Shown: positions 7,065-37,801 of the stretch, in pieces
Position numbering within the stretch: position 1 is the first letter of the stretch
Layout: each line of letters opens with the position of its first letter
NCBI RefSeq assembly: GCF_016903815.1
Contig: NZ_CP069973.1
Length of the DNA: 64,000 nucleotides
Strand: one strand, 5' to 3'
From: Escherichia coli
Lineage (GTDB): Bacteria; Pseudomonadota; Gammaproteobacteria; Enterobacterales; Enterobacteriaceae
Notes under the pieces: generated by a model
What the model was told of the DNA's origin: nothing
Seen by the model: only the letters and a program-made list of their open reading frames with translations
Database searches by the model: none
Program-made: the position numbers and the translations under genes

Positions 7065-7074
7065 AAGCGGACTC

Positions 7075-8915: not shown

Positions 8916-8975
8916 CTTTAAATTCCTTACTACTCTTCATCTGCCGACCGCGCCGCGTGCATCGTCATCAGATGC

Positions 8976-9761: not shown

Positions 9762-9782
9762 GATCAGTATCCTTTATTGTTA

Positions 9783-10064: not shown

Positions 10065-10348
10065 AACGACCTCAATATTTCCGATAGAAAGAAAACGTGC
10101 ACAGAGGAATAGCAATCTACGGATTCACCCATGTGCATTAATTATTTAATTATCATAATGCTAAGGTTATTCAGACAAAATGTTTTGCGCGTCAGTGGGA
10201 CTATCTTGCTTTTGCATTCCCGCAATTGACAATAAAATCCACCCGAGGTTTGTAATAAAAGATCTGCGTTTAAACTTCCTTGCAAAATAGCCCCGCTCTG
10301 AATAGCGATCATAATTACTGTTAAAACTGTCGTATTTTTGCCAATTAG

Positions 10349-11545
10349 TTATGCCGTGCGGGCAATCTCCGCTGCATCTATAGCAATCATTTTTTCTTCA
10401 TTGGTTGGGATGACCGCAATCTTCGTGGTGTCGGTTTTAGAAATCAGTCCGCTACGTCCGCCGAACAGCTGCTGGTTACGTTCTTTATCCAGTTCCAATC
10501 CCAGCGCCTGAAGGCGTTGCACGGTAAGTTCTCGAATTAACGCCGAGTTTTCGCCAATTCCACCGGTGAAAATCAGCGCATCGAAGCGTTTAAGCGAGGT
10601 CACGTGGCCGCCGATATGTCGTGCGAGACGATGTACTAACACGTCGATGGCTAACGCTGCCCGTTCGTGGCCCTCATCACGCGCCTGCTGAAGGGTGCGG
10701 CAATCGCTGGATAAGCCGGAAATCCCCATTAGGCCGGACTGGTTATTGAGCATTTTGTACAGCGTGTCGAATGTTTGACCTGTGCGTTTCGCCAGATATG
10801 CGACGACACCAAAATCAAGATCCCCGCAGCGCGTGCCCATTACCAGCCCTTCCAGCGGGGTCATACCCATTGAGGTGTCAATGCTCGTGCCGTTTTGCAC
10901 CGCACATAGCGATGAACCGTTGCCCAAGTGGGCAATCACGATGCCATGATCCGCCGGGTCGAGATCTAGTGATGCAAGCGCTTCTGCGGCAATATAGCGG
11001 TGAGATGTTCCGTGAAAGCCGTAACGTCGCACCATATAATCTTGCTGGAACTCCAGCGGGATCGCATAGGTGTAAGCAGCCGGAGACAAGGTCTGGTGGA
11101 ACGCAGTATCGAACACCGCAATATGCGGCAACGCGGGCAACAGAGCCCGAGCCGCTTCAATACCAATCAGGTTGGCAGGGTTATGCAAAGGGGCCAGCAC
11201 CGACAGCGCGCGGACTTTTTCGATCACATCATCGGTAACCAGTACTGATCTTTTGAAGTCGCTGCCGCCATGAGCCACGCGGTGCCCAACGGCGTTGATG
11301 GCTTCCAACAGTTGCTGTTCGTCGAGCTTCGCGAAGAGCACTTTGAGCGCATGCTGATGGCTGGCGTCATCCAGCGCGACAGTGGATTTATGGCCGTCTC
11401 GGTCTTTAAACGTTATGACAGCATGATCAATACCCAGTCGTTCCGCTAGGCCCGACAGCAACGGCTGATCTGCATCCTGAGGAATGACGGAGAATTTCAT
11501 TGATGAGGAACCACAATTAATCACTAATACACAAGCTAAAGACAT
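10349..11545 (-). CDS. Acetate/propionate kinase
   Basis: N-terminal VLVINCGSSSMKF motif; start taken at MSLACVLVIN to avoid overlap with upstream gene. Confidence 0.75.
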   Translation of the reverse strand: MSLACVLVINCGSSSMKFSVIPQDADQPLLSGLAERLGIDHAVITFKDRDGHKSTVALDDASHQHALKVLFAKLDEQQLLEAINAVGHRVAHGGSDFKRSVLVTDDVIEKVRALSVLAPLHNPANLIGIEAARALLPALPHIAVFDTAFHQTLSPAAYTYAIPLEFQQDYMVRRYGFHGTSHRYIAAEALASLDLDPADHGIVIAHLGNGSSLCAVQNGTSIDTSMGMTPLEGLVMGTRCGDLDFGVVAYLAKRTGQTFDTLYKMLNNQSGLMGISGLSSDCRTLQQARDEGHERAALAIDVLVHRLARHIGGHVTSLKRFDALIFTGGIGENSALIRELTVQRLQALGLELDKERNQQLFGGRSGLISKTDTTKIAVIPTNEEKMIAIDAAEIARTA

Positions 11546-11573
11546 GATGCCCCCTGAAATGGACTGCAAAAAA

Positions 11574-12071
11574 TTAACGGGTTGTTGTGAGGGGATAACG
11601 CAGAACGCTAAACTGCGCCATCGCCTGGCGGGCGATGAGCATATCTTCCTCAACACTGCCGCCGCTGATGCCGATGCCGCCTAGTAAGCGCCTGCCCGAC
11701 CAGCAGGGAAAACCACCGCCGAAGCAGCAGATATCTTTTTCTTTCTCAAGGCCGTACAAATCACCACCCGGCTGTACCAGCGTTGCCAGTTCGTGAGTTG
11801 GCATTTTGAGAGCTACCGCGGTCCAGGCCTTTTGTGGTGCCAAGGTATGGCTGACCAGCAGGGCGTTATCCATGCTGAAGAAAAAACGCTGCTGACCGCA
11901 GGCATCCACTAGGCTAAAAACGATCGATACATTGCTGGACTGTGCCATTTCCCGGGCCAACTTTGCCAGCAGTTCACTGTCCTCCAGGCTCAGCGACATC
12001 CGGAGTTCCGGTAACTGCGTGGCAATAGCCTCATTAATCCAGTTGTCGAGTGAAGCCTCATTCGCAGACAT
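11574..12071 (-). CDS. DUF336/GlcG-like (PduO C-terminal domain-like) protein
   Basis: 165 aa; GGIGISGG-type motif. Confidence 0.55.
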   Translation of the reverse strand: MSANEASLDNWINEAIATQLPELRMSLSLEDSELLAKLAREMAQSSNVSIVFSLVDACGQQRFFFSMDNALLVSHTLAPQKAWTAVALKMPTHELATLVQPGGDLYGLEKEKDICCFGGGFPCWSGRRLLGGIGISGGSVEEDMLIARQAMAQFSVLRYPLTTTR

Positions 12072-12098
12072 AAGTATTCCTCAGCGTACGCGCCGCTA

Positions 12099-12368
12099 TT
12101 AACCGTTAAGTTCGAGCGTGTCGACGATACCCACCACGGCAGCGTCAATCACCGAGTGATCTTTGTTGTTGCTCATACGCGCCGAACTGCCGGTGGTGAT
12201 GATCACAATCTCTCCATTGCCCGCGCCGACAGTATCAACTGCCACCTGGGCATGGACAGTCGGCTGATAGTTTTCATCGAGCCGCGCCACTATCAGCAGT
12301 TTTGAGCCATTCAGCGAGGCGTGTTTGGTGGTGGAAACCAATGCGCCAGTAACTTTAGCGAGGTACAT
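12099..12368 (-). CDS. BMC vertex protein, EutN/PduN/CcmL family
   Basis: 89 aa with typical BMC-P size and pattern. Confidence 0.7.
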   Translation of the reverse strand: MYLAKVTGALVSTTKHASLNGSKLLIVARLDENYQPTVHAQVAVDTVGAGNGEIVIITTGSSARMSNNKDHSVIDAAVVGIVDTLELNG

Positions 12369-12379
12369 ATTTCCTCCGG

Positions 12380-13105
12380 TTAACCATGGATAACAGTGAG
12401 ATTACGCCGCTGGATTTCATCTCTGGCAGCAGGGGTAATCAGCGTGTCGCTCTCAATGCGCAGCACTGTGCCAATGGTCAGTAGGCGGATATCGCTCTGG
12501 GTGATTAAACGTTTTTTACCGGCTACTGTCAGGGTGGATTGGCTTCCTTGCACCGACTTGACATGGGCTGCACGTTTACCGAAAAGCGTAATGCCATAGC
12601 TCTCTAGGACCTGAGCGTAACCTTCCAGACAAGACAGCAGTGGCATCGGTAATTCGCTATCGACGCATTGTTGATGCAGCGTGGCGATAATCTGTTTACG
12701 GTGCTGTAACGCCTGAAATACAGTTTCACAGGCCAGATTATCGCGAATGCCCAGCGCAATTTTGCTCATGCTGTTGACAGAGAGCGCAGGCAGATAGAGC
12801 ACCTCATAGTGAGGCGGCGATCTGTCAAATCCAGCACGAGAACCACGCTGAATTAGCGCATCCATGCAGACAGATTTCAGCGCCGACTGGCTGGCGCTGT
12901 GAGAAAAATTTACCCACAACTGATAGCCCGCCAGCTCAAGCGCCTCAAGGCAGTTCAGCGTTTCCGGCAGCGAGGAGATATCCTCACCAGTCACCACTAC
13001 GCAGACATTTTTCTGCGCGACGGATTGTGCCAACACTTCAGCGATGACCCGGTCCAGCAGTTGCGATAAGGTTTGATTGTCCATTGATTTACCCCTGGTC
13101 CGCAT
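12380..13105 (-). CDS. Hypothetical microcompartment-locus protein (possibly PduM-like)
   Basis: 241-aa ORF embedded in the operon; no motif I can place confidently. Confidence 0.35.
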   Translation of the reverse strand: MRTRGKSMDNQTLSQLLDRVIAEVLAQSVAQKNVCVVVTGEDISSLPETLNCLEALELAGYQLWVNFSHSASQSALKSVCMDALIQRGSRAGFDRSPPHYEVLYLPALSVNSMSKIALGIRDNLACETVFQALQHRKQIIATLHQQCVDSELPMPLLSCLEGYAQVLESYGITLFGKRAAHVKSVQGSQSTLTVAGKKRLITQSDIRLLTIGTVLRIESDTLITPAARDEIQRRNLTVIHG

Positions 13106-13847
13106 TCATGGCGATGCCTAATGGTGTGACCAATAGTGGCTCTGCCGAAGGAATCACATTTTTACCGGTTTGTTTACTGAACACGTTGGCAAACTGGCTG
13201 AAGCTGCTCGCGCCACCTACCAAATAAATATTTTTTACCTGCTGGGTAGCGAACCATCCCGACACCAAGCTGGCCATTTTCTGGGCCACCGGTAGCACCA
13301 GGGTAAAGACCTGCGCTTCCTGCCCGTTTTTTTTCATTTCTTCCGCCTCGGCATAAGGCAAGCCCAGCGCGCCAGCGATCACCAACTTCATATGGCTTCC
13401 ACCGGTGGGCTCATCGGCACTGAACGTCACTTTACCGCTTTTCAAAATGCTCATGCCGGTGGTGCCTCCTCCGACATCCACCACCGCCCCGTTTTTAATA
13501 TTCAGCGCGCTGGCAGCGGCTACCGGTTCATCTAGTACTTGGGTCACGATAAAACCCGCCAACTCCACTACGTTGACGATCACTTTTGTGTTGCCTTCAG
13601 AGATCCCCGGTGGGACTGCGATCGCCGCGCGCTCCAGCGTGCAGCCCTGTTTCTGTTCAAGAATTTGTTTGAGACGTGCTACTACCCGGCTGGCGGTCAG
13701 GTAATCCACCACCACGCCGTCTTTCACCACATTGGAGGGATACATTACCCCTGCCACCGGCTGGTTATCTTCATCCAGCACCACGATTGCGATATTGGCG
13801 GTACCGAGATCCCCCCCACCTTCAACGCGCCGGAGTAGGGCCGACAT
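13089..13847 (-). CDS. EutJ-like actin-fold ATPase/chaperone
   Basis: DLGT near N-terminus, VVDVGGGTTG, DEPTGGSH segments typical of EutJ. Confidence 0.7.
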   Translation of the reverse strand: MSALLRRVEGGGDLGTANIAIVVLDEDNQPVAGVMYPSNVVKDGVVVDYLTASRVVARLKQILEQKQGCTLERAAIAVPPGISEGNTKVIVNVVELAGFIVTQVLDEPVAAASALNIKNGAVVDVGGGTTGMSILKSGKVTFSADEPTGGSHMKLVIAGALGLPYAEAEEMKKNGQEAQVFTLVLPVAQKMASLVSGWFATQQVKNIYLVGGASSFSQFANVFSKQTGKNVIPSAEPLLVTPLGIAMNADQG

Positions 13848-13901
13848 TCGCCGCTGTCAATCAGCGCGGCCAATTCGTGAAATCGGCAGTTTTCGGGGCT
13901 G

Positions 13902-14588
13902 TTAGCCATGGCGCGCAGCCTGTTTTATGCCGCGAACGGTATCGCCATTACGCAGACCGACGCCGTTAGCTTCTTCCATATCAATATGCAGTTCCAGCAC
14001 TGCATCCGCCGTGACGCGTACCACTACATGGCTGAGCACACCACCGCGCGGACCGTTTGTTTGCACATCGATTTCCATTCCGTCATGCAGGCCGTGCAAT
14101 TCGGCTTCTTCGGGCGAGATATGGATATGGCGCCAGGCGACAATCATGCCGTTGTGTTTCACCACCCGCCCTTTCGGACCGATGATTTCAATGCCCGGCG
14201 AATCCAGCAGATCCCCCGACATGCGCACCGGAGCTTTAGTGCCCAGCGCAAAGCCGTCGGCCACAGAGATTTCCACCTGCGTGGCATTACGCAGTGGCCC
14301 TAACACGCGCACTTTGTTGAGCTCGCCTTTTGGCCCGCGCAGCGTCACCATCTCTTCGGCGGCATACTGACCGGGCTGTTTCAACGCTTTAGAACGGGTT
14401 AGCGTAGAGCCGTAGCCAAACAGAATGTCCATATCTTCACGGCACAGATGAACATGGCGGTTGGACACGCCCACCGGAATATTCAGCGCGACGGGCGCGG
14501 CAGCAGGCGCTGCCGTTTTTTTACTGGTGGCAAGTTCCTGCAAAATTTGTTGGGTAATCCACTCGGCTTGTTGTTCGGTGTAATTCAT
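13902..14588 (-). CDS. PduL-type phosphotransacylase
   Basis: 228 aa with two PduL-like repeats (HVHL...; HIHIS...). Confidence 0.7.
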   Translation of the reverse strand: MNYTEQQAEWITQQILQELATSKKTAAPAAAPVALNIPVGVSNRHVHLCREDMDILFGYGSTLTRSKALKQPGQYAAEEMVTLRGPKGELNKVRVLGPLRNATQVEISVADGFALGTKAPVRMSGDLLDSPGIEIIGPKGRVVKHNGMIVAWRHIHISPEEAELHGLHDGMEIDVQTNGPRGGVLSHVVVRVTADAVLELHIDMEEANGVGLRNGDTVRGIKQAARHG

Positions 14589-14727
14589 AATGGGTACGAC
14601 CTGATTATTGGGTTATCTTATGGGTAATGGGCGTCTAACGATCAGGATAGGGAGTAACGACGCCCGGTTTTTGTTTATCAGCAGGACTTTTTTGACTGCT
14701 TCACGGAGGCTGAACAAAGTTATCCAG

Positions 14728-15846
14728 CTAGCCGGTAATCAGGTCGATCAACCCTTCGACATCATGCGTCGTCACCTGCCGCGGGTTCGACGCGGTACAA
14801 CCGTCGGCCAGCGTCGAATTCACCAGTGCGCTGCGCAACTCGATGATTTTTGCACGGTCGATACCCAGTTCGCTGAGAGTGACGGGGATGCAGAAATGGC
14901 GATTGATCTGGCGGATCTCCTGAGTCATCAGCGCGATGGCCTGCTCCGGTACCGCATGGTCAATGCCTATGATTTGCGCGCAACGGTGATAGCGATCGCG
15001 GGTTTCAGTGCTGGCCCGTTTGCTGTTGAAGTCGATGACAATCGGCAGCAGCATGGCGTTAATTTTGCCATGAGGAATATGCAGCATCCCGCCGATGGCG
15101 TGTGCCATGCCGTGTACCAACCCCAGCCCGGCGGAGTTAAATGCCATGCCTGCCATACAGGAGGCATTGTGCATGTGGGTGCGCGCCGCAATGTCTTTTT
15201 CGTCGTTAAACACCTGCGGCAGATAGCGCCAGGTCAACGCGATGGCTTTTTCCGCCAGCGCATCGCTAAAGTCATTTGAGCCAGTAGAGACAAAGGCTTC
15301 AATGGCATGGGTCAGCACGTCCATGCCGGTATCTACCGCGACATGACGCGGCGCGGTTAACACTAGGTTAGGATCGAGAATGGCGATTTCCGGCACCAGT
15401 TGCCCGGAGATCAACGGATATTTGCGGCCATTTTGCGGATCAGAGATGATCGCGTAGGACGTCACTTCAGAGCCGGATCCGCTGGTTGTGGGAATAGCAA
15501 TGAGATCGATTTGATGATCTCCAAAATACTCTTCCAATGTGACTTTAATTCCTTTCGCAGCGTCCAGCGACGAGCCGCCGCCGAGGGCGATAATAACGTC
15601 GGGCTTAAAGGCTTTAAAACGCGCCGCGCCGGAAGTCAGAATATCAATATCTGGATCCGGAGTAACCTCGCCGAAAATGCATACCGATGCCTCAGGCATA
15701 TGGCTTATTAAATAACGAGTTTTACCTGATGACATCATAAAATCATCGGTGACAATACCGACTCGTTTATTATTAAATTGGCATAGAGAGGTTATTGCCT
15801 CTTCACCAAAATAAATTTTGGGGCACGAAAAATAATAGCGGGCCAT
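14728..15846 (-). CDS. Iron-containing alcohol dehydrogenase (PduQ/EutG-like)
   Basis: 372 aa; GGGSSLD and metal-binding His-rich segment; first gene of the minus-strand cluster. Confidence 0.8.
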   Translation of the reverse strand: MARYYFSCPKIYFGEEAITSLCQFNNKRVGIVTDDFMMSSGKTRYLISHMPEASVCIFGEVTPDPDIDILTSGAARFKAFKPDVIIALGGGSSLDAAKGIKVTLEEYFGDHQIDLIAIPTTSGSGSEVTSYAIISDPQNGRKYPLISGQLVPEIAILDPNLVLTAPRHVAVDTGMDVLTHAIEAFVSTGSNDFSDALAEKAIALTWRYLPQVFNDEKDIAARTHMHNASCMAGMAFNSAGLGLVHGMAHAIGGMLHIPHGKINAMLLPIVIDFNSKRASTETRDRYHRCAQIIGIDHAVPEQAIALMTQEIRQINRHFCIPVTLSELGIDRAKIIELRSALVNSTLADGCTASNPRQVTTHDVEGLIDLITG

Positions 15847-16064
15847 GTGTAACTACCTTAATCATGGTAAACGACCAAATTTGATGTCGTTAACCTAACA
15901 TGGCGATTTTTTTAATGGACTGAGGATGTTTGTGCAGGTGAAGGATTATTTTGCGGTATTGTTTTGCCTTGAGCAAAAAAGTCCTTTTCTAGGAAATACC
16001 TAAAATCTGATACAGTCAAACTCAATATTTATTGTCAGAGAATGAATAAAAGCGGGGTGTTTTT

Positions 16065-20538: not shown

Positions 20539-20979
20539 ATGACTTCTGAAGTGAAACTGAAAACCGGTGGTGACCCCCGGTCATTACCGGATTATGCTGC
20601 CCTGCGCGATGAAATCAGCAAACTGACCCACCCGGCACGCCCTGATGTGGACTGGCGTTACGTGGAAACGCTCTGCCTGCGTCTGTATGAACACAATGGC
20701 GTGGAATTACAGACGGCATCCTGGTACACCATTGCCCGGATGCATACAACAGGGTTAAGTGGTCTGAATGAAGGGCTGGCTCTGATTGCTGCGCTGACCC
20801 GGCATCACTGGTCAGTGATGTGGCCGCTGAATACACACTCCCGGCTGGAAATTATTACCGGTCTGTTCAACCGTCTGCAAAAAACGCTCCGGGCCATGCC
20901 TCCGGATAACCGTGACAACCTGCCCCTGCTGTATCAGACCGAAACATTCCTGAAGACACTGAGTGATCTCCTTCCATGA
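20539..20979 (+). CDS. ImpA_N-like domain protein (T6SS TssA/VasL N-terminal domain family)
   Basis: Pattern [13 protein letters not shown]...[15 protein letters not shown]...[13 protein letters not shown] resembles ImpA_N; stop lies 45 bp before IS2. Confidence 0.45.
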
Positions 20980-21114
20980 AAATACGCAGGCTTGGCACGA
21001 ACTTAAACAGAGCAGTAAAGTGGTAGACTGGCCCCCTGAATCTCCAGACAACCAATATCACTTAAATAAGTGATAGTCTTAATACTAGTTTTTAGACTAG
21101 TCATTGGAGAACAG

Positions 21115-21480
21115 ATGATTGATGTCTTAGGGCCGGAGAAACGCAGACGGCGTACCACACAGGAAAAGATCGCAATTGTTCAGCAGAGCTTTGAACCGGG
21201 GATGACGGTCTCCCTCGTTGCCCGGCAACATGGTGTAGCAGCCAGCCAGTTATTTCTCTGGCGTAAGCAATACCAGGAAGGAAGTCTTACTGCTGTCGCC
21301 GCCGGAGAACAGGTTGTTCCTGCCTCTGAACTTGCTGCTGCCATGAAGCAGATTAAAGAACTCCAGCGCCTGCTCGGCAAGAAAACGATGGAAAATGAAC
21401 TCCTCAAAGAAGCCGTTGAATATGGACGGGCAAAAAAGTGGATAGCGCACGCGCCCTTATTGCCCGGGGATGGGGAGTAA
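21115..21480 (+). CDS. insC: IS2 transposase OrfA (InsC)
   Basis: Starts [26 protein letters not shown]. Confidence 0.85.
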
Positions 21481-22343
21481 GCTTAGTCAGCCGTTGTCTC
21501 CGGGTGTCGCGTGCGCAGTTGCACGTCATTCTCAGACGAACCGATGACTGGATGGATGGCCGCCGCAGTCGTCACACTGATGATACGGATGTGCTTCTCC
21601 GTATACACCATGTTATCGGAGAGCTGCCCACGTATGGTTATCGTCGGGTATGGGCGCTGCTTCGCAGACAGGCAGAACTTGATGGTATGCCTGCGATCAA
21701 TGCCAAACGTGTTTACCGGATCATGCGCCAGAATGCGCTGTTGCTTGAGCGAAAACCTGCTGTACCGCCATCGAAACGGGCACATACAGGCAGAGTGGCC
21801 GTGAAAGAAAGCAATCAGCGATGGTGCTCTGACGGGTTCGAGTTCTGCTGTGATAACGGAGAGAGACTGCGTGTCACGTTCGCGCTGGACTGCTGTGATC
21901 GTGAGGCACTGCACTGGGCGGTCACTACCGGCGGCTTCAACAGTGAAACAGTACAGGACGTCATGCTGGGAGCGGTGGAACGCCGCTTCGGCAACGATCT
22001 TCCGTCGTCTCCAGTGGAGTGGCTGACGGATAATGGTTCATGCTACCGGGCTAATGAAACACGCCAGTTCGCCCGGATGTTGGGACTTGAACCGAAGAAC
22101 ACGGCGGTGCGGAGTCCGGAGAGTAACGGAATAGCAGAGAGCTTCGTGAAAACGATAAAGCGTGACTACATCAGTATCATGCCCAAACCAGACGGGTTAA
22201 CGGCAGCAAAGAACCTTGCAGAGGCGTTCGAGCATTATAACGAATGGCATCCGCATAGTGCGCTGGGTTATCGCTCGCCACGGGAATATCTGCGGCAGCG
22301 GGCTTGTAATGGGTTAAGTGATAACAGATGTCTGGAAATATAG
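21438..22343 (+). CDS. insD: IS2 transposase OrfB (InsD), DDE domain
   Basis: 301 aa overlapping OrfA in -1 frame. Confidence 0.85.
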
Positions 22344-22355
22344 GGGCAAATCCAA

Positions 22356-23084
22356 GTGGCTTTACCGGAAGCCATGGTGAAGGGATATATCACCCGCCTG
22401 GAGAACCAGCCTGTGCAGGGGGAAGTATCGTCTCCGGTAACGCTACTGGCGCAGGCACTCAGGCTTGAAGCTCCGGATGTGCAGGAACATCAGACCCTGC
22501 CGCACTCCCGTCTGGTGTATGTTGTTTCTGAAACAAAAACAGAGCCCACACTCTTCCTTCAAAAATCCCCGCTCACGTTTCTGAAAACGTTTGTTACAGG
22601 TGTCTGTACGGCATTGCTGGCGGTCTGCGTGGCCATTCCGGGATGGCAGTTTCTGACACAGCCATCACCGGCGGAGCAGCAACTCAGGGCGCTGCTGACA
22701 CCCTCACCGGATGTGCTTTCAGCAGACCAGATGATGCAGCTCAGCAGAACACTGTTAAATCATGCGTCAGAGTGGATAACCCTTTCCGGTCAGCAGATAA
22801 CGCGACTGACAGAATTCCCCCCGGCATACAACCTGCAACGCAGTGTGCAATTGCTGCAGCAACTGATGGTACTTTTCCCCGACAATCCTCGTGTTCAGGA
22901 AATGGTGGATAACTGGCAGAAGAGTGCAAGGAGTCGTGCGCTCCCGGAAGAGGCGATGACTGGCTGGAACGAAGGCATGACCCGCTTACAGCTGTTGGCT
23001 GAGCGCCTGAACCGTCCGGATGAACAGCGGGGAAAATACATGACGGTCAGTGAGCTGAAAACGGAGGTGTCTGGCATCATGTAG
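22356..23084 (+). CDS. Hypothetical membrane protein immediately downstream of IS2 (start ambiguous: GTG at 22356 or ATG at 22374; frame stays open upstream across the IS2 site)
   Basis: One predicted TM helix (FVTGVCTALLAVCVAIPGW); possibly C-terminal part of the ImpA_N gene. Confidence 0.4.
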   Translation: MALPEAMVKGYITRLENQPVQGEVSSPVTLLAQALRLEAPDVQEHQTLPHSRLVYVVSETKTEPTLFLQKSPLTFLKTFVTGVCTALLAVCVAIPGWQFLTQPSPAEQQLRALLTPSPDVLSADQMMQLSRTLLNHASEWITLSGQQITRLTEFPPAYNLQRSVQLLQQLMVLFPDNPRVQEMVDNWQKSARSRALPEEAMTGWNEGMTRLQLLAERLNRPDEQRGKYMTVSELKTEVSGIM

Positions 23085-23275
23085 GCTTTTAACCGGCATA
23101 TCCTGGCAGAAGAACAGTTGTGTCACTATGGTGAAGTCCGCAACCAGAATGGAAGCGAGCAGCAGCAAAAACAAATGAAAGATGCATTTGTTAAGCTGAT
23201 TCACGTTTACTGTTTTATATAAAGCCTTTAGGATGTGGGGGAAGGGGAGTGTTGCAATTTATTCGGTGAGATAGT

Positions 23276-23983
23276 TTGTTTGTGGAGTGTTTAAGCGCTT
23301 TTGGATGTTCGTCTGTTGTTTCGAATAGTATGGTGAATATGAATGGTAAATATAATGTCAGGAGTGAATTGTTAGCTCGTTGTATCGGAACTGGTAGATT
23401 GAAAGGAGATGTGAGAAGTGATTTTATTGGGTTTAATGGTAGTAAACAGGTAGGTTATGTTTTATTAACTTTGTTCTTAACGAAAGTAATAAATTCTGAT
23501 TTGCTCTCTCATTATCGTATATTTAATCGTTTTTTGCATTATGAGAGAAAAGTTATGGACATATATAATTCTTTGAGTGATATAGAAGTTGATTGTATTT
23601 GCCAGGAAGTGATGGCTATATATGAACATACTCAGCGATGCTGCAACGAAAAGAAAATCACAACTATCCAGTTAGGCAGGAAACTTAATGGCAGGTATGC
23701 AGATACGATTGCTGAGTTAAAAGAAACAGCAGAGATAAGAGGGGAGGATGTGATTTCTTTTGAGATGGATATATTGAATTCTTTTAATGATGCGGATGAA
23801 TATCACGGACGTGTTAAACTGGAGTTGGATATACCTGCTTCAGATATATTATATTGCCATGATTTTATTGATTCAAAACATGTAAACTCCTGGTTGGTTG
23901 AACCACATGAGTGGGTGGTTATAAATCGTTCTCTCAATGGGATTGTTACAGTGCCAGTATCATCAATAAAGATTCTTTATTGA
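23276..23983 (+). CDS. Hypothetical protein in AT-rich segment, start uncertain
   Basis: 235-aa ORF with visibly low GC compared with neighbours. Confidence 0.35.
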   Translation: MFVECLSAFGCSSVVSNSMVNMNGKYNVRSELLARCIGTGRLKGDVRSDFIGFNGSKQVGYVLLTLFLTKVINSDLLSHYRIFNRFLHYERKVMDIYNSLSDIEVDCICQEVMAIYEHTQRCCNEKKITTIQLGRKLNGRYADTIAELKETAEIRGEDVISFEMDILNSFNDADEYHGRVKLELDIPASDILYCHDFIDSKHVNSWLVEPHEWVVINRSLNGIVTVPVSSIKILY

Positions 23984-24123
23984 TAAATATGTTTGTAATA
24001 TGTTTTATATGTTCATCAGGATGAAAGTAAGCAATTTTAGTAGTGGCTAATTAAACGTCATTTAATGTTTGTTGCTATATGTTGAAAGCATAAACAGGTT
24101 TCTTTTGCATAAAGTAAAAATAA

Positions 24124-25356
24124 ATGAATGATAATTTTTTAACGGAGAAAGTCCTTACTGGAGAGAATGTTCTGCGTGCAGCAATTGCTCGTATTGAGTG
24201 GATTTTTGAAATATTTCCATCAGTTTGTCTCTCTTTTTCCGGTGGTAAAGATTCCACCGTGCTTTTCCATCTTGTGGCTGATGTGGCCCGCAGGAAAAGA
24301 CGTCGTTTCTCTGTACTGTTCATTGACTGGGAGGCTCAGTACCAGTGCACCATTGAACATATTCAGAAGATGCGGGAAATGTACCATGATGTGACGGAAA
24401 CCTTTTACTGGGTGGCGCTTCCCCTGACCACGGTAAACGGTGTCTCGCAGTTTCAACCGGAGTGGATATGCTGGGAGCCTCGTGTGACCTGGGTTCGCCA
24501 GCCACCGGAAGAGGCCATTACGGATATGGCGTATTTTCCCTTTTACCGGTATGCCATGACGTTTGAAGAATTTGTTCCGGCATTTTCTTCCTGGTTTGCT
24601 GGCAACCGGTGTGGAGTGGCAGTGCTGACCGGTGTCCGGGCGGATGAATCCCTCAACCGCTTTATGGGACTGGTGTCCCAGCGCAAACTGAGATATGCCG
24701 ATGATAAGCCTTGGACCACGGCATCGCCTGAAGGGTTTTACTACACTATGTATCCGCTGTATGACTGGAAAACTCGTGATATCTGGATATATCACACCAG
24801 AACCCGTGCCATCTACAATCCCCTGTATGATCTGATGTACCGTGCCGGCGTACCGTTACGCAACATGCGTGTCTGTGAACCTTTTGGTCCTGAACAACGT
24901 AAGGGACTGTGGCTTTACCATGTTCTGGAACCGGAAACCTGGGCCAGGATGTGTGAGCGGGTGTCAGGGGCTGCCAGCGGGGCACTTTATGCCAATGAAA
25001 GCGGGGCTTATTTTGCCCTGCGTAAGCGCATATCAAAACCAGCCCATCATACCTGGCGCAGCTATGCGATGTTTCTGCTGGATGTGATGCCGGAAAGAAC
25101 GGCAGAACATTACCGCAACAAGATAGCTGTCTATCTGCGCTGGTATCAGACGCGGGGCTTCCCGGATGACATCCCGGATGAACAGGAGAATGACCTGGGG
25201 AGCCGGGATATTCCGTCCTGGCGACGTATCTGTAAGACTCTCATAAAGAATGATTTCTGGTGCCGTACCCTCTCCTTCAGTCCGAACAAACCCCGGCACT
25301 ATGAACGTTATCTGCAGCGTATGAAAGAAAGGAGGAAGGAATGGGGGATTCTGTGA
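24124..25356 (+). CDS. ibrA: IbrA-like PAPS-reductase/DndC-like ATP pyrophosphatase family protein
   Basis: PP-loop SFSGGKDS near N-terminus; 410 aa; overlaps downstream ParB-like gene by 16 bp. Confidence 0.7.
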   Translation: MNDNFLTEKVLTGENVLRAAIARIEWIFEIFPSVCLSFSGGKDSTVLFHLVADVARRKRRRFSVLFIDWEAQYQCTIEHIQKMREMYHDVTETFYWVALPLTTVNGVSQFQPEWICWEPRVTWVRQPPEEAITDMAYFPFYRYAMTFEEFVPAFSSWFAGNRCGVAVLTGVRADESLNRFMGLVSQRKLRYADDKPWTTASPEGFYYTMYPLYDWKTRDIWIYHTRTRAIYNPLYDLMYRAGVPLRNMRVCEPFGPEQRKGLWLYHVLEPETWARMCERVSGAASGALYANESGAYFALRKRISKPAHHTWRSYAMFLLDVMPERTAEHYRNKIAVYLRWYQTRGFPDDIPDEQENDLGSRDIPSWRRICKTLIKNDFWCRTLSFSPNKPRHYERYLQRMKERRKEWGIL

Positions 25357-25979
25357 CACCGGAGATACTGAGCAACATGATTCGTCAGTACTTCAGCCAG
25401 GAACGACCAGAAGAAGAGGCCATACAGGCCCTGAATCATCTGCGCAGGGTGCTTCATGAGGTCAGTCCATTTGCACAGGAGCCTGTGGACTGTGTGCTGT
25501 GGGTGAAAGCAGATGAGGTGGTGGCCAACGATTATAACCCCAATGTCATGGCGCCGGGTGAGAAGAAACTGCTGAAACATTCACTGGAGCAGGATGGGTT
25601 CACGCAGCCTGTGGTTGTCTCGGAAGAGAAGGAGCATTATCTGGTCGTGGATGGTTTTCATCGTCAATTACTGGGCAGGGAAGCAGGTACGGGAAAACGC
25701 CTGAAGGGCTGGTTGCCAGTGACCTGTATTAATCCGGAAAGAAAGGGACAGGCCTCACGTATTGCTGCAACCATTAGACATAACCGGGCCAGGGGGAAGC
25801 ACCAGATAACTTCAATGTCTGATATTGTCAGGGACCTGTCGCGGCTGGGCTGGACGGATGAACGTATTGGTACGGAGCTGGGTATGGACCAGGATGAAGT
25901 TCTCAGGTTGAAACAGATTAGCGGGCTGACGGAGCTGTTTCTGGAAGAGGATTTCAGTCCGGCATGGACGATTCGCTGA
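25341..25979 (+). CDS. ibrB: IbrB-like ParB/sulfiredoxin-fold (DGQHR-like) protein
   Basis: VVDGFHRQ motif (DGQHR-like) in a 212-aa ORF. Confidence 0.65.
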   Translation: MGDSVTPEILSNMIRQYFSQERPEEEAIQALNHLRRVLHEVSPFAQEPVDCVLWVKADEVVANDYNPNVMAPGEKKLLKHSLEQDGFTQPVVVSEEKEHYLVVDGFHRQLLGREAGTGKRLKGWLPVTCINPERKGQASRIAATIRHNRARGKHQITSMSDIVRDLSRLGWTDERIGTELGMDQDEVLRLKQISGLTELFLEEDFSPAWTIR

Positions 25980-26018: not shown

Positions 26019-26327
26019 TTGAGCAGGAAAAAGAGTACCCCGGAAGTCGTGGAATACATGGTTGCACAGAAGCTGGAGGCTGCGGGTTGCTGGCGCAGAG
26101 CTTCCGCCCGCTGGCTTTTTGTTATGGGAAATGTTGAATGTACAGAAGCACAACGGGAGTGGTTGTTGTTGCGCAGGAATTATTGCCTGGCGCAGATATC
26201 GTCCCCGCCGCTACCTGAAAAGCTGGATATCAGCGAAGTGGCGAAAGCTGCAGATGCCACGCTGAGGCGAATGGGGATTGCCAGTCCGTCCGGGGAGGTA
26301 TTCAGAAAAGGTACACCGGTCTGTTGA
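26019..26327 (+). CDS. PerC-family transcriptional regulator homolog
   Basis: LEAAGCWRRASARW segment resembles PerC/Pch family. Confidence 0.5.
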   Translation: MSRKKSTPEVVEYMVAQKLEAAGCWRRASARWLFVMGNVECTEAQREWLLLRRNYCLAQISSPPLPEKLDISEVAKAADATLRRMGIASPSGEVFRKGTPVC

Positions 26328-26347: not shown

Positions 26348-26992
26348 ATGATGAAGAAAGGAATGGCAAACAGTATATCAATGACATGGCAACTTTTATG
26401 CGATGATCATGGTTTTACCCGGGAGCACTACAATCAGCTGAAGAAATTCAGCCCGGAGGCATTACGTGAAATTATTGCTGAAATAGCCTGCTGCCATCCG
26501 TCAACCAGTATATTGCTCAGGAATAAGTGGCTGACACTGCCGGAGGATATTCCGGAGCAGGTTACCCGTGAATACGAACGAAGAATACAGAACTGTCCAT
26601 CTTTCAGGAGCGAGAAAGAGGCGGAATCCTGGCTAAATGAACTGTTTTTTGCTGTGATTGCGCCGCTATACCGGGTTGTCCCCGGACAATCAGAACAGGT
26701 TGAATCCTTTGTTCTGCAGCTTATTGCCGAACAGGAGCGGGTTTGGGAGCTTATTCTAACCAATGATGGTTATTCATGGCATTGCGCACTTTATGATATA
26801 TTATTTCATCTGGTTTTACGAAATATGGAAGACCAGCCTGAACATCAGAGACAGCGAATAACAAAAATACTTAATGAGTCCGATACAAGGCGGGTTGCAG
26901 AAGAGATTAAATTCCGGATTCAATATCTTCAGGATGAAGAACAAAAGAGAGTTTTAAGTGAGTTGGTAAATGTCCTGATTTCAAAAAGATAA
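26348..26992 (+). CDS. Hypothetical protein
   Basis: 214-aa ORF 20 bp downstream of the PerC-like gene. Confidence 0.4.
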   Translation: MMKKGMANSISMTWQLLCDDHGFTREHYNQLKKFSPEALREIIAEIACCHPSTSILLRNKWLTLPEDIPEQVTREYERRIQNCPSFRSEKEAESWLNELFFAVIAPLYRVVPGQSEQVESFVLQLIAEQERVWELILTNDGYSWHCALYDILFHLVLRNMEDQPEHQRQRITKILNESDTRRVAEEIKFRIQYLQDEEQKRVLSELVNVLISKR

Positions 26993-27427
26993 AACATGTC
27001 GGAGTAATTTTTCTATATATTAAAAAAACAGGTTTGTATTACCATAAAGGAGATCGGTGAATAACCGTTATTGGATGATCTCCTTCCATAAAAATACGCG
27101 CAATCTAACGGTTCGCTCTGTGCCAAAAAAAGACATTGCTCACAATATCGAGTTAATCATTCGGCCGTTGAACATTCCCATTGAAAAATTTCTCAGTATA
27201 GAATATACCAATGTTGAGGGCATTCCTCTTACATCTCGAAGGATAACTATCATGGGTCTAAAACCAGGTCCAAAACCAATTGCTAAGTCAACAGGAAAAC
27301 CGGATCAACGCCGACGCGATAATAAAGATACTCCTGGCAATACTCCGGGATTAAAGCCAAGTAAGTCCACAGGTAAGTAAAAAATAAGGGTATAAATACT
27401 TATTTATACCCTGACTACATATCCAGT

Positions 27428-28252
27428 CTACTGAAGGTGTTTCTGCAGCCAGATGCACGTTCCTTCTATATCATACGCCTGTGCCCCATACCCTTTAGCA
27501 AGCAAAGTCTCTGGTAAATACTCGTCATATTTATCCAGATACTTGTCGGGAACAACTGCAGCAAGCTCAAACTCTGAAGGTAGCCCCGACAATAGCATTT
27601 TCTTAAGTGCACGCTGGACAGAGGCAACGCCTGAGTCCTCTACCTCTATCACACCTGCAAATGAACTGGCTTTAAAGCCACAACGTATAATCAGGGACGT
27701 AATTGTATTGACAATTTTATCCCCCATCCACGGGATCACGTAGCAGTTCTGACCACTGGCAATAAAACAGTCATTTTGTAGATTGTAGCGTTGGAAGTTG
27801 TCACTTCCTTCCGCGAAGAGGCTTCTGGCTGCGGCATCAGCATAATCGACTCTCTTGTTGCCTACCGCGATACGGTAATCATTTTCCCTGTAGATAGTGA
27901 GCATTTCCTGGCGAACAACATCATGAACAGACATCCCGGTACCACTGAATAGTGGCGGCTGACCGCCTTTAGTCGTCTCAACATAGATAACCTTTTTTTC
28001 AACCTCGATCTCTGTCACTTTCCAGCGCCGTCCGCCGAAGATGATGTGCTGCTCCGGCAAAAGTGGGGAGTCTACAGGCACTGTGCCAAGAGTTCGGTTT
28101 CCCGTTACAATGCGAAACTCCTCAGGTGTATTGAATACGGCATAAAACGTGTAGTGATTAGTCAGCTTCTCCCCCTCAGCCCCGACAACTATTTCACCGC
28201 TGGTTAGTTGAGTGAGCAGTACGGGGTCGGACCGGTATGCAGCGAACTGCAT
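27428..28252 (-). CDS. Hypothetical protein abutting an IS junction (possibly N-terminally truncated)
   Basis: 274-aa ORF whose 5' end overlaps the start of the IS3-family OrfB frame on the opposite strand. Confidence 0.4.
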   Translation of the reverse strand: MQFAAYRSDPVLLTQLTSGEIVVGAEGEKLTNHYTFYAVFNTPEEFRIVTGNRTLGTVPVDSPLLPEQHIIFGGRRWKVTEIEVEKKVIYVETTKGGQPPLFSGTGMSVHDVVRQEMLTIYRENDYRIAVGNKRVDYADAAARSLFAEGSDNFQRYNLQNDCFIASGQNCYVIPWMGDKIVNTITSLIIRCGFKASSFAGVIEVEDSGVASVQRALKKMLLSGLPSEFELAAVVPDKYLDKYDEYLPETLLAKGYGAQAYDIEGTCIWLQKHLQ

Positions 28253-28604: not shown

Positions 28605-31347
<2,743 letters not shown>

Positions 31348-33783: not shown

Positions 33784-35253
33784 ATGCATATCGATTCGAC
33801 TGAAAAAAATAATAAACAAAAGTTGGGCTTGCTTGCGCTAACATCCATTGTCGTGAGCTCGATGATCGGCAGCGGCGTTGACGGACTCCCCCAGAATATG
33901 GCGGAGAATTCTGCCGTGGGCCCGGTGGCGATAGCATGGATAGTCTGTGGTATCGGCATGTTTTTCATCTCCAGAACTTTTATCGTGCTGTCAAACATTA
34001 GACCTGATCTCCAGTCAGGAGTTTATATGTATGCCCGGGAAGGGTTCGGCCGATTTACGGCATTTAACGTCGCCTGGGGCTACTGGCTGATGACTATATT
34101 CAGCAACGTCGCCTTTGCCATTATGGTGATGGATACGCTGAATTATTTCTTACCAGGTGATTTCAAGGGAGGGAACAATATTCCTTCCGTTATCGGTGCC
34201 TCTTTGCTGATATGGGGATTCAACTTTTTAGTCCTCTCCGGTACCCGCATTGCCGGGTCGATTAACATCGTCGGCACGCTGGCCAAACTGATCCCGCTGG
34301 TGGCCTTTATTATTATTCTCATGCTGTTTATGAAGTACACCACGTTCGCAGATAACGTCTGGGGGCACAGCGCGAGTAAGGCCAGTCAGGACCTAGGCTC
34401 TATTTTCTCACAGGTAACTTCACCGCTTAGCGTGGCACTCTGGAGCTTCATCGGCGTTGAGGGGGCTGTCGCTCTTTCCGGTCGGGCCAAAAATAAACGC
34501 GACGTGGGTAAAGCCACATTCATTGGCTTCGTTGTATCACTGATTATCTGTCTGCTGGTCTCCATCCTGCCGTTTGGCGTGCTGACTCAACATGAGCTCA
34601 GCGCAATTCCAACCCCATCCACCGCCGGTATTCTGAAGATTGTTGTCGGTGAATGGGGGAAGATTATGATTATCTTGGGGGTGCTGATTTCGGTGCTTAC
34701 CAGCTGGCTGGCGTGGACCATCATCTGCGCCGAACTGCCTATGGTGGCCGCGCAGAACGGCACATTCCCGAAACCGTTCAGCAAAAAAAATGTGAAGGGT
34801 TCGGCCTCGGTTTCGCTTTATATAAGCAGTGCGTTTATGCAAATCGTCGTACTTCTGGTCTACTTTTCTAACGATGCCTGGCTTGCAATGCTGGCTATCT
34901 CTACCCTGACCGTTTTACCTGCGTATTTAATGACCACGGCATACCTGTTTAAACTATGTATTAGCGGCGAGTATGCCAGCTATACCACGAATCACAGCCG
35001 CAGCGCCGCGCTGGTCAGCAGTATTATCGGCTTTGTATTCTGCCTGTTTATGTTCTACGCCAGTGAAATCAAATATCTGGCGATGGTTCCGGTGCTGCTT
35101 ACGCTGGGCGTGCCCCTGTTTATCTGGGCAAGAAAAAAAGACGATCGCGCAGATAAAATATTTACGCTACGCGAACTGGCATTTTTTATTTTACTGCTGG
35201 TCCTCGACATCATTGTTTTTATTCTACTGCATTATAAAACGATACATTTTTAG
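33784..35253 (+). CDS. APC-superfamily amino acid/polyamine antiporter (CadB/PotE/AdiC-like), copy 1
   Basis: 489 aa, about 12 TM segments; N-terminal SMIGSGV-type motif. Confidence 0.8.
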   Translation: MHIDSTEKNNKQKLGLLALTSIVVSSMIGSGVDGLPQNMAENSAVGPVAIAWIVCGIGMFFISRTFIVLSNIRPDLQSGVYMYAREGFGRFTAFNVAWGYWLMTIFSNVAFAIMVMDTLNYFLPGDFKGGNNIPSVIGASLLIWGFNFLVLSGTRIAGSINIVGTLAKLIPLVAFIIILMLFMKYTTFADNVWGHSASKASQDLGSIFSQVTSPLSVALWSFIGVEGAVALSGRAKNKRDVGKATFIGFVVSLIICLLVSILPFGVLTQHELSAIPTPSTAGILKIVVGEWGKIMIILGVLISVLTSWLAWTIICAELPMVAAQNGTFPKPFSKKNVKGSASVSLYISSAFMQIVVLLVYFSNDAWLAMLAISTLTVLPAYLMTTAYLFKLCISGEYASYTTNHSRSAALVSSIIGFVFCLFMFYASEIKYLAMVPVLLTLGVPLFIWARKKDDRADKIFTLRELAFFILLLVLDIIVFILLHYKTIHF

Positions 35254-35357
35254 TCCAGATTAATTCACAGCAAGTTAAGGTGACGATAATGTCTGTTTCT
35301 TGGGCATGACATCCTCACAGTTAAATACTATCTGAACAGTAACAGTGGAGACACCTA

Positions 35358-37727
35358 ATGAAATTTAACCACAATCTTTTATTTATTTCCTCACAATATC
35401 TTGATGGCGACAACCCTTCGCAGCAGGTACTGGAAGAGCTTCAAACCGAACTCGCGGAACGCGGTTTTAAAATTCATATCACGCACCAGATCTCTGATGG
35501 ATTAAAAATCATCGAAAAAAGCCCCCAATACAGCGGGATTGGTTTTTACTGGGAGCCAGACAATCCGACCTTTGCAGAAGAGCTACAGCACTTTATCAGC
35601 ATATTCCGCAAAAGAAATGCCACGACGCCGCTGATAATTTTCTCAGAACAGAATATTACCGATCGTATCCCACTCGACGTCTTAAAAGAGGTCAGCGAAT
35701 ATGTTTATCTGTTCTCTGAATCCGCAGCCTTCACTGCCAATCGACTGTACTCCTTAGTCCACCGCTATGCGGATAAGCTTCTTCCTCCCTACTTTAAAAC
35801 CCTTAAGGACTTTACCGAGGACGGTGACTATTACTGGGACTGCCCGGGGCATATGGGGGGAATGGCCTATCTGAAACATCCTGTTGGCATTGAGTTCATT
35901 AACTTCTTTGGCGAAAACATGATGCGCGCTGATATTGGCGTGGCTACCGCGGAGATGGGGGATTATCTGATCCACGCCGGACCGCCTAAAAAATCGGAAG
36001 AAATTGCGGCCCGACTGTTTGGCTCTGATTGGACCTTCTACGGTGTTTCCGGCTCATCGGGGTCGAACCGTATTGTGGCCCAGGCTGCGGTTGGCGCAGA
36101 TGAAATTGCCATTATTGACCGAAATTGCCACAAGTCACTTAATCATGGCCTGACCTTGTCTCAGGCAAGGCCGGTTTACCTGAAACCTACCCGCAACGCG
36201 TGGGGGCTGATTGGGCCTATCCCGACCGGACGCCTGAAGAAGGCCAGTATTGATGCGCTGGTGGCAAACAGCCGACTGGCATCTGGTGCGGTCAGCCAGT
36301 CCCCGTCCTACGCCGTGGTAACCAACTGCACCTATGATGGCTTCTGTTATAACGTGAACGATGTAGTCAGACACCTGGGTGAAAGCGCACCGCGCATCCA
36401 TTTTGATGAAGCATGGTATGCCTATGCGCGTTTCCATCCGCTATACCAGAGTCGCTATGCAATGGACGCGGAGGAAACGCCAAATCGTCCAACCCTATTC
36501 GCCGTACAGTCCACCCATAAAATGCTGCCCTCACTCTCCATGGCCTCAATGATTCATGTGAAGAAAAGCGATCGCGCGCCGCTTAATTTCGATGACTTTA
36601 ACGATGCCTTTATGATGCACGGCACGACCTCACCCTACTACCCGATCATTGCATCAATTGATGTGGCAGTAAGCATGATGGAGGGTGAATCCGGTTATTC
36701 GCTTGTGCAGGAGTCAATTGAAGAAGCGATTGCCTTCCGTAAAGCCGTGGTCAGCGTCAAGCGCCAGCTCCAGGAGCAGGAAGGTGGTGACGCCTGGTTC
36801 TTCGATGTGCTTCAGCCAACCGAAGTGCAGGACAGCGATTCTGGGCAGCGATACAGTTTTGAAGAGGCACCCGTATCGCTGCTGAGCCACAGCGCCGACT
36901 GCTGGTCGCTGCGCTCCGGTGAGCGCTGGCACGGTTTTGCCGATGATGATCTGGTCGAAACCAACAGTATGCTCGATCCAGTAAAAGTGACCCTGACTTG
37001 TCCAGGGATCGGCCCGAAGGGAGAATACCAGAAAAACGGTATTCCGGGATATTTGCTGACCCGTTTTCTCGATGACCGTCGCATTGAAATTGCCCGTACT
37101 GGTGACTACACCGTGCTGATCCTGTTCTCCGTCGGCATCACCAAAGGCAAATGGGGAACTCTGATTGAAAGCCTGCTGGCCTTTAAAAAGCATTACGACA
37201 ATGACGATCTGGCCACAGATGCTATCCCGTCGCTGAAAGCGCATTCTCCACACTACGACACGCTAACCCTCAAGGAGCTATGTCAGATAATGCATGAAAA
37301 AATGGATGAGCTGGAGCTGATGTCGCATATCAACGACGCGGTAAACACCGATCCGGAACCAGTTATGACCCCGGCAGAAGCCTATCAGAAAGTCGTACGC
37401 TACAAAACCGAGCATATCCGGCTGGATGATTTTAGCGGCAGAATTGCCGCCAGCATGCTCGTCCCATATCCCCCAGGCATTCCTGTACTGATGCCGGGCG
37501 AACGGATGCCGCAAGGTAACAAGGGCATTATTGGCTATCTGCGCGCCCTGCAGGAATTCGATAAGCAATTCCCAGGTTTTGAACATGAGATCCAGGGCGT
37601 TAACGTCGATGAAGACGGGGACTTCTGGGTCAGAGCGATTGTGGAAGAAGAACGCGATGGGCAGTCGCTACCCGGCCACATAACCTTTAAACGCCAGGTC
37701 TCTGGTATTAAAAAGGGCCGCCAGTAG
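35358..37727 (+). CDS. Orn/Lys/Arg decarboxylase family protein (fold-I PLP, wing domain), substrate unknown
   Basis: 789 aa; PLP-lysine motif QSTHKMLP; N-terminal wing domain; overall similarity to AdiA/SpeF/CadA. Confidence 0.85.
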   Translation: MKFNHNLLFISSQYLDGDNPSQQVLEELQTELAERGFKIHITHQISDGLKIIEKSPQYSGIGFYWEPDNPTFAEELQHFISIFRKRNATTPLIIFSEQNITDRIPLDVLKEVSEYVYLFSESAAFTANRLYSLVHRYADKLLPPYFKTLKDFTEDGDYYWDCPGHMGGMAYLKHPVGIEFINFFGENMMRADIGVATAEMGDYLIHAGPPKKSEEIAARLFGSDWTFYGVSGSSGSNRIVAQAAVGADEIAIIDRNCHKSLNHGLTLSQARPVYLKPTRNAWGLIGPIPTGRLKKASIDALVANSRLASGAVSQSPSYAVVTNCTYDGFCYNVNDVVRHLGESAPRIHFDEAWYAYARFHPLYQSRYAMDAEETPNRPTLFAVQSTHKMLPSLSMASMIHVKKSDRAPLNFDDFNDAFMMHGTTSPYYPIIASIDVAVSMMEGESGYSLVQESIEEAIAFRKAVVSVKRQLQEQEGGDAWFFDVLQPTEVQDSDSGQRYSFEEAPVSLLSHSADCWSLRSGERWHGFADDDLVETNSMLDPVKVTLTCPGIGPKGEYQKNGIPGYLLTRFLDDRRIEIARTGDYTVLILFSVGITKGKWGTLIESLLAFKKHYDNDDLATDAIPSLKAHSPHYDTLTLKELCQIMHEKMDELELMSHINDAVNTDPEPVMTPAEAYQKVVRYKTEHIRLDDFSGRIAASMLVPYPPGIPVLMPGERMPQGNKGIIGYLRALQEFDKQFPGFEHEIQGVNVDEDGDFWVRAIVEEERDGQSLPGHITFKRQVSGIKKGRQ

Positions 37728-37801
37728 GCGGGGGAAAGAACAATACCGTCGGATCGCCTGCAATCCGACGGCAATATTATAGAATAGCTGAGGGAAACGT
37801 T

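Follow-up and report, generated by a model that had tools for sequence, protein, structure and literature searches.

A conserved AT-rich gene upstream of ibrAB in an Escherichia coli island and its predicted resemblance to R-S-E ADP-ribosyltransferases

The stretch of Escherichia coli DNA analysed here (64,000 nucleotides of contig NZ_CP069973.1, assembly GCF_016903815.1, hereafter the window) holds a short AT-rich cassette with a single protein-coding gene, directly upstream of the ibrA-ibrB pair. The first-pass annotation of this DNA had described an AT-rich region of about 23200-24120 with one open reading frame (ORF) of 235 amino acids and no recognisable motif, and had suggested an abortive-infection or toxin-like gene. 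The composition is borne out. The GC content of 23200-24120 is 0.336, compared with a mean of 0.497 for the window (standard deviation 0.044 in 921-bp segments); only 0.25% of segments of that size reach so low a value, and the minimum of 0.329 lies inside the same patch. The ORF is likewise present (23276-23983, + strand, TTG start), with its coding part trimmed to 214 amino acids (Table 1). The cassette gene is a real, conserved gene under constraint, and horizontal acquisition is the best explanation of its presence. The family to which its product belongs is most likely a new, non-canonical clade of ADP-ribosyltransferase (ART)-like proteins, carried as solitary cargo of mobile elements.

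The cassette has sharp homology edges, at about 23206 on the left and about 24080-24190 on the right. Homology with a second E. coli island context starts at the left edge (query 851, window 23206), and loci that contain ibrAB only start to match at the right edge (query 875-985, window 24080-24190). The 214-codon coding sequence has a GC content of 0.34 and a GC content at third codon positions of 0.28, whereas the latter value is 0.54-0.61 for ibrA, ibrB, perC and the nearby VasL fragment. No Rfam family matches within 22500-24600. The first 63 nucleotides of the 235-codon ORF are probably an untranslated leader. In a second E. coli allele with 95% nucleotide identity (strain FDAARGOS_1258, locus L008), which preserves the same 214-codon frame in the other island context, the TTG extension contains an in-frame TGA and the substitutions within it disregard codon position, and for these reasons 23276-23338 is taken not to be coding. 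The ATG at 23330 is GTG in that allele; conservation begins with the ATG at 23339 and continues from there. The two alleles agree closely in the block that precedes the extension, a candidate for a promoter or regulatory region. A promoter/terminator scan gave no convincing terminator adjoining the gene.

The cassette is present in 474 of 5,426 complete E. coli genomes, and the exact 214-residue protein is found on at least 1,000 contigs, where every source name examined calls it hypothetical. The second allele is flanked by an OLD-family nuclease gene and, again, by the ibrAB-perC module, in the vicinity of ireA and pgt; both ORFs are intact and the dN/dS between them is 0.29. The ortholog of Serratia marcescens (63% identity) ends at the same residue, shows a pN of 0.23 versus a pS of 0.69, and has a GC content of 0.35 within a locus of 0.52. 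An exhaustive HMMER search of 1.84 billion cluster representatives returned 127 relatives at E<=1e-3, 78 of them at E<=1e-10; as the representatives stand for clusters at 50% identity, the family comprises at least 127 clusters. These results bear directly on whether the ORF could be spurious, a non-coding AT-rich spacer, for which a lack of conserved homologs had been named as the sign. The empty library searches, the lack of a strong promoter or ribosome-binding site and the TTG start of the longest ORF would fit such a spacer. The 127 homolog clusters, the purifying selection, the confident predicted fold (see below) and the survival of the frame in two alleles and on so many contigs leave it practically no chance, and it is counted as refuted.

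The remark that the protein has no recognisable motif holds for the libraries, as searches of Pfam, PADLOC, NCBIfam, PHROGs and PDB sequences with the 214-residue and 235-residue proteins returned no match. A profile of 57 members found only a chance GINS match among PDB sequences, the family consensus and 19 single members gave one DRAT match in Pfam (E=0.057) and otherwise noise, and PHROGs and PADLOC yielded only single chance-level matches for 69 members. Searches of the literature for IbrAB, for the WP accessions and for leading-region or novel ART families brought up no description of this protein. The conserved pattern emerges only after the homologs are aligned. In the alignment of 57 members on which conservation was scored, Q99, D144, E188, E191 and N196 are invariant, and G31, K36, G39, R55, D59, R60, E90 and Y95 and, in the C-terminal part, R114, L146, N147, S148, Y155, W192 and G201 are at least 90% conserved. 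The recurrent blocks are Y-x-H-T-Q, L-x-R, (E)M-D-x-L-N-S-F, L-Y-C and V-E-x-G-E-W-V-V-I-N-R. Most members have about 270-340 residues. Two members of about 550 residues (P0079 and P0108, loci L028-L030), in ordinary chromosomal context, have the ART-like domain fused to an N-terminal domain of about 250 residues with the motifs GG..Y.d..G..wyvK and DAWLANWDV, which shows faint similarity to atypical protein/lipid kinases of the HopBF1/LepB type; their N-S motif reads T-S (L-T-S-W).

The AlphaFold2 model of the E. coli protein, calculated with the family alignment, is confident (pLDDT 94, pTM 0.90). Helices span residues 10-104 and are followed by a strand (109-116), a helix (118-134) and further strands at 138-142, 146-150, 159-166, 170-173, 191-195, 202-206 and 210-212; the lowest pLDDT (69) is found in the loop of residues 51-60. 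The predicted C-terminal part has the split β-sandwich NAD-binding fold of ARTs. The strand of R114 is the first of this core and leads into a helix, an arrangement also seen in C3 and VIP2, and the strand of N147-S148 is the third. On this model, R114, S148 and E191 would correspond to the Arg-Ser-Glu (R-S-E) catalytic triad of one class of these enzymes. The spacings are 34 residues from R to S and 43 from S to E. In known R-S-E enzymes (CTX, Scabin, MTX, ModA) the corresponding distances are 37-54 and 43-56 (Table 1 of PMC8120803), so that the first is near and the second inside the known range, and both are counted towards the ART assignment. A sequence signal comes from DRAT (PF07357), the sole Pfam family matched by the 57 members at E<=0.01, with five members matching (best 7e-4). 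Since only about 0.6 false matches would be expected in total for 57 sequences at this threshold, five matches to one family indicate a real though faint signal. In one member (P0015), residues 98-205 align to DRAT positions 143-236, the stretch with the conserved Arg and the N-S motif. Foldseek against the PDB gave no significant match; Tre1 (6drh) was among the fold matches. Taken together, membership of the 214-residue protein in the ART superfamily is moderately supported by the agreement of three weak, independent signals, with no single strong one. The earlier suggestion of a toxin-like gene is thus partly supported: it stands at the level of fold and motifs, through the likeness to R-S-E ADP-ribosyltransferase toxins and the candidate residues for catalysis.

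Several observations weigh against this reading. Strand order and spacing in the model are all that link R114, S148 and E191 to the catalytic triad. The motifs are non-canonical, with N-S in place of S-T-S and E-x-x-E in place of [QE]-x-E; E188 and E191 are spaced one residue wider than the canonical pair, within an invariant E188-x-x-E191-W context. The DRAT matches reach 13 bits against a Pfam gathering score of 25, the E. coli protein itself matches nothing, and neither Pfam nor NCBIfam contains a curated ART family that the query matches at threshold. An hhalign comparison of the family with an SpvB-type ART alignment (built from pSLT spvB, shallow with 7 sequences) gave a probability of 0.2%, a weak negative. 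The dN/dS of 0.29 is looser than that of ibrA (0.07), and the promoter/terminator scan found no promoter-like site on the + strand upstream of the gene and no strong sigma-70 match. Finally, the short form of E. coli and Serratia stops 55-120 residues before the C-terminus of most members and has lost the near-invariant R55 and D59, which belong to the loop of lowest pLDDT; every other conserved residue is kept.

Two alternatives concern the protein itself. The resemblance to ARTs might be purely topological and the family might have another, unrelated biochemical activity or none; this is decidedly unlikely. Alternatively, the E. coli/Serratia short form could be a remnant of the family of about 300 residues that is decaying or has been repurposed and is catalytically dead, kept only by its linkage to ibrAB or as a non-enzymatic binding protein. 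This is rather unlikely. Both E. coli alleles retain Q99, R114, D144, N147, S148, Y155, E188, E191, W192 and N196, as does Serratia across 63% identity, and the common C-terminal end in both genera implies that the truncation is old and stable. Members of intermediate length (269-270 residues) exist, indicating that the tail is variable across the family, and the intact ORF of both alleles, the prevalence of the exact protein and the pLDDT of 94 also argue against decay.

The genomic contexts of the family were compared by all-against-all BLAST of neighbours across 13 loci, 12 of them outside E. coli (several metagenomic homologs lie on contigs too short for context). No neighbour is conserved across the 13 loci, be it a cognate antitoxin, an ADP-ribosylhydrolase (ARH) or a macrodomain gene, and in 12 of the 13 the family gene is below its host locus in GC content. 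Neither the 50,697 phage records nor the 2.9 million viral contigs searched contain a member of the family. Members in integrative and conjugative elements (ICEs) are accompanied by TraG_N, TraU, DUF4400 and TraI_2 and by SprT-like or anti-restriction genes. On plasmids, a member from Agrobacterium adjoins an ArdC-like zincin and a large ParB, one on an IncF plasmid a TerD/VWA/PP2C/kinase cluster, and one from Pseudomonas imuABC. The Serratia member directly follows Kiwa, another follows a type I restriction-modification operon, the Providencia member is near GmrSD and McrBC, and one is a lone gene between housekeeping genes. Genes of defence type, namely Kiwa, type I restriction-modification, GmrSD with McrBC, the OLD nuclease and NERD+UvrD, are frequent neighbours; other members lie in ICE or plasmid regions beside anti-restriction genes, which fits anti-defence equally. 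For abortive infection there is neither a PADLOC match nor an antitoxin or immunity gene, and it is suggested only through association with these neighbours and with Qat as a slot-mate. A separate observation concerns Avibacterium sp. (locus L017, 5530-11734), where the family gene is translationally coupled, through overlapping stops and starts, with genes for a KAS-III-like protein, a 129-residue ORF, a BtrH_N/DUF4872 protein and a Schlafen AlbA_2/Fic-like_C protein; this set may be a multi-gene system unlike the other loci.

E. coli and Serratia marcescens both have the gene downstream of an ImpA_N/VasL gene. It might be a leftover, effector or immunity gene, at the end of a type VI secretion system (T6SS) cluster that has decayed, all the more as an Iodobacter homolog is beside vgrG and the fold matches include the T6SS ART effector Tre1. 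The protein has no PAAR, MIX or Rhs delivery domain, however, and no adjacent ARH or Tri1-like immunity gene; Kiwa genes intervene in Serratia, the Iodobacter vgrG is divergently oriented, and most members, whether on ICEs, plasmids or plain chromosome, have no T6SS genes around them. QatABCD takes the place behind the VasL remnant in a sister island of E. coli, implying a slot for variable cargo, and a T6SS origin is thus very improbable. The position after VasL behaves as a hotspot of defence cargo: it is occupied by a helix-turn-helix gene, KwaA and KwaB (Kiwa) in Serratia marcescens (locus L002, 7567-9726), by QatABCD in E. coli CE0026f (locus L009, 8500-12824) and by the ART-like gene with ibrAB in the window. 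The stretch examined has no annotated T6SS gene besides VasL, which is split there by IS2; its intact Serratia counterpart (460 residues) ends a full T6SS cluster.

The relation to ibrAB is close in E. coli and absent elsewhere. The gene is contiguous with ibrA in 448 of the 474 E. coli copies, and the block from the cassette gene through ibrA, ibrB and perC to two hypothetical genes recurs in two island contexts. Conversely, ibrA occurs in 2,070 of the 5,426 E. coli genomes, of which about 22% carry the cassette gene, so that about four in five ibrAB loci (among them the O157:H7 island and JJ1887) are without it, and no IbrA or IbrB homolog is near the family gene in any of the 12 non-E. coli loci. 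Hence the link to the IbrAB pair implied by the initial description is real within E. coli and does not extend beyond it, and the gene travels with the ibrAB-perC module as a hitch-hiking addition, without being a defining part of it. It could still be argued that it acts as a third component, effector or regulator, of an IbrA-IbrB system and not alone: the copies abutting ibrA are immediately upstream of it on the same strand in two island contexts, and the linkage survived about 5% nucleotide divergence. Such a role is quite improbable. Apart from the small share of ibrA genomes with the gene and the lack of IbrAB at the non-E. coli loci, homology with ibrAB-only loci ends about 40 bp upstream of ibrA, and the GC content of 0.34 versus 0.51-0.53 indicates a separate origin. 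As to the pair itself, ibrA encodes a PAPS-reductase-like protein (DUF3440) and ibrB a ParB-like protein. IbrA and IbrB match the phage families phrog_2302 and phrog_2159; ibrA reaches 4-5 copies per genome, and 75 of its places are on plasmids.

Table 1. Features of the cassette and of the surrounding island (positions in the window)
Feature	Position	Strand	Basis or remark
AT-rich cassette carrying the gene, GC ~0.34	23206..24080	.	composition and homology break-points
Upstream block highly conserved between two alleles, TTTTATATAAAGCCTTTAGGA ... GTGTTGCAATTTATTC	23206..23275	+	allele alignment
5' extension of the 235-aa ORF, TTG start	23276..23338	+	in-frame TGA in the 95% allele
Coding sequence, 214 aa + stop, short-form member of an unnamed ART-like family	23339..23983	+	PGAP WP_024196335 'hypothetical protein'; homology
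N-terminal helical domain, residues 1-104; conserved G31, K36, G39, Y95, Q99	23339..23650	+	alignment, model
Predicted C-terminal β-rich core, residues 105-214, like the NAD-binding core of R-S-E ADP-ribosyltransferases	23651..23980	+	model
R114 codon, candidate 'R' of the R-S-E triad, end of strand 109-116	23678..23680	+	alignment, model
N147-S148 codons in (E)MDxLNSF, candidate STS counterpart, strand 146-150	23777..23782	+	alignment, model
E188-P-H-E191 codons, both Glu invariant; candidate ARTT-loop Glu and catalytic Glu, start of strand 191-195	23900..23911	+	alignment, model
ibrA	24124-25356	+	co-travelling
ibrB	25341-25979	+	co-travelling
perC	26058-26327	+	co-travelling
214-aa hypothetical	26348-26992	+	co-travelling
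107-aa hypothetical	27057-27380	+	co-travelling
NERD + UvrD-helicase protein, 595 aa	18358-20145	+	PADLOC candidate C3a187
ImpA_N/VasL gene, IS2-split (fragments 20539-20979, 22356-23084)	20539-23084	+	
IS2 ORFs	21070-22343		
ATP-dependent helicase C-terminal fragment, 274-aa ORF	27428-28252	-	cut by IS3 remnant
Group II intron reverse transcriptase/maturase (ltrA-like)	29261-30784	+	between IS3-family transposase fragments
grp glycyl-radical propanediol microcompartment cluster	~1-15850		
Decarboxylase/antiporter pair	33784-39301		
Tyrosine integrase	44660-45925		
tRNA-Phe (pheU)	46123-46198	-	island boundary
Further low-GC patch	26501-27732		GC <0.40 in 921-bp segments
Further low-GC patch	40731-42222		GC <0.40 in 921-bp segments
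Further low-GC patch	56921-57962		GC <0.40 in 921-bp segments

The annotated order around the cassette is the NERD+UvrD gene, the split ImpA_N/VasL gene, the cassette gene, ibrA, ibrB, perC, two hypothetical genes, a helicase fragment, insertion sequence remnants and a group II intron. The region agrees at 100% identity with the chromosome of E. coli strain 7/2. The island lies at the pheU tRNA-Phe site, where the tRNA and a tyrosine integrase gene form its boundary; the site is called pheU, and not pheV, from the flanking core genes, which beyond it are dicD, dsbD, cutA, dcuA, aspA and groESL. Leftward it reaches at least 46 kb and includes the microcompartment cluster and the decarboxylase/antiporter pair. 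The NERD+UvrD protein, a 3'-5' exonuclease according to PGAP, matches its PADLOC candidate ('NERD+UvrD') end to end (E 4e-140) and is also found upstream of the VasL remnant in the Qat-bearing sister island. The helicase fragment may be the remains of another defence gene. The two trailing hypothetical proteins match no family, and the first of the three further low-GC patches spans the 3' end of the 214-residue one and the 107-residue one.

A stand-alone, divergent, ART-like protein of the R-S-E type, carried as mobile-element cargo, is the best explanation of these observations and the one towards which we lean, with moderate confidence. The protein would consist of an N-terminal helical domain and a C-terminal β-sandwich of the cholera-toxin-like (R-S-E) ADP-ribosyltransferase type. 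R114 and N147-S148 would hold NAD+, and E191, aided by E188 in the preceding loop, would catalyse the transfer of ADP-ribose to an intracellular macromolecular target; residue conservation suggests such catalytic activity. It would act alone, with no dedicated immunity or antitoxin gene. As no context contains an immunity gene, it may be harmless to the targets of its own host and specific for a foreign one, or it may stay latent until triggered. Its role would be in the conflict among mobile elements, phages and hosts, as defence or counter-defence; because both kinds of neighbour occur, the contexts leave the direction undecided. A bolder proposal is that this family without a Pfam model is a new clade of active single-gene ARTs, with a non-canonical R / N-S / E-x-x-E site, no immunity or antitoxin partner and a novel target, carried to block incoming phages and plasmids or to disarm the defences of recipients. 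In this full form it is speculative and doubtful. One survey by similar methods reported 26 new ART-like families without Pfam models in Legionella (PMC12522546), and as such families are still being found, a new clade would be credible and not startling.

About 9% of complete E. coli genomes, including many human clinical isolates, carry the gene. If it is an active ART, a superfamily of central importance for bacterial toxins, for takeover by phages and for defence against them would gain a clade whose active-site signature is unusual and which has no immunity partner; if inactive, the gene is merely a hitch-hiking remnant. Its slots in defence islands and ICEs make it a cheap candidate for one-gene defence or counter-defence, and the outcome would bear on whether AT-rich singletons in defence islands are worth screening systematically.

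Among known systems, the protein appears in its working most like the mono-ART group of C3, VIP2, DraT and Tre1, although it fails sequence membership in every curated ART family. The C3/VIP2/iota-type toxins form an R-S-E clade (Pfam ADPrib_exo_Tox, PF03496) with structures such as VIP2 (1qs1), C3bot2 (1r45), Certhrax (4fk7), CPILE-a (5gtt) and SpvB (2gwm). The present protein differs from them in having no sequence or profile match to them, in its N-S and E-x-x-E motifs, and in the lack of a signal peptide, a translocation component and a binary partner; it resembles cytoplasmic cargo of a mobile element and not a secreted virulence toxin. DraT (PF07357) is closer in this respect: it works inside the cell as a stand-alone R-S-E enzyme on one specific target and is no secreted toxin (PMC8120803), and it is the sole library family with a sequence signal to the family described here. 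The scores are below the gathering level, however, none of the 13 loci contains draG/ARH or nif genes, and the family is found on ICEs, plasmids and islands and not on diazotroph chromosomes. Tre1-Tri1 of Serratia proteamaculans combines a T6SS ART effector with an ARH immunity protein (6drh). The present protein is a single domain of 214 residues with no delivery domain, its next gene is ibrA in E. coli and an unannotated 329-residue ORF in Serratia, and the family has neither a Tri1/DraG-like neighbour nor a general linkage to T6SS.

The remaining comparisons are with ARTs that act inside the producing cell or travel on mobile DNA. DarT-DarG, CmdTAC (CmdT) and ParT-ParS are, as the present protein would be, ART-fold proteins of mobile elements and defence islands that act within the cell that makes them. 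They are always accompanied by an adjacent antitoxin, hydrolase or chaperone, whereas this family has no conserved neighbour; no PADLOC model matches the query or 69 members beyond the chance-level matches mentioned above, and DarT and ParT belong to other ART clades (PMC8120803). Unlike the ARTs with which invading DNA takes over its host or counters defence (T4 Alt, ModA and ModB and the ART-PolyVal domains of conjugative elements), the family has no phage or viral-contig members, matches no PHROG or Pfam ART-PolyVal model and is not found within a polyvalent protein. It would share with them the character of R-S-E-type ARTs on mobile DNA and, as with counter-defence ARTs, some of its members on a plasmid and on ICEs stand beside ArdC/SprT-like and anti-restriction genes.

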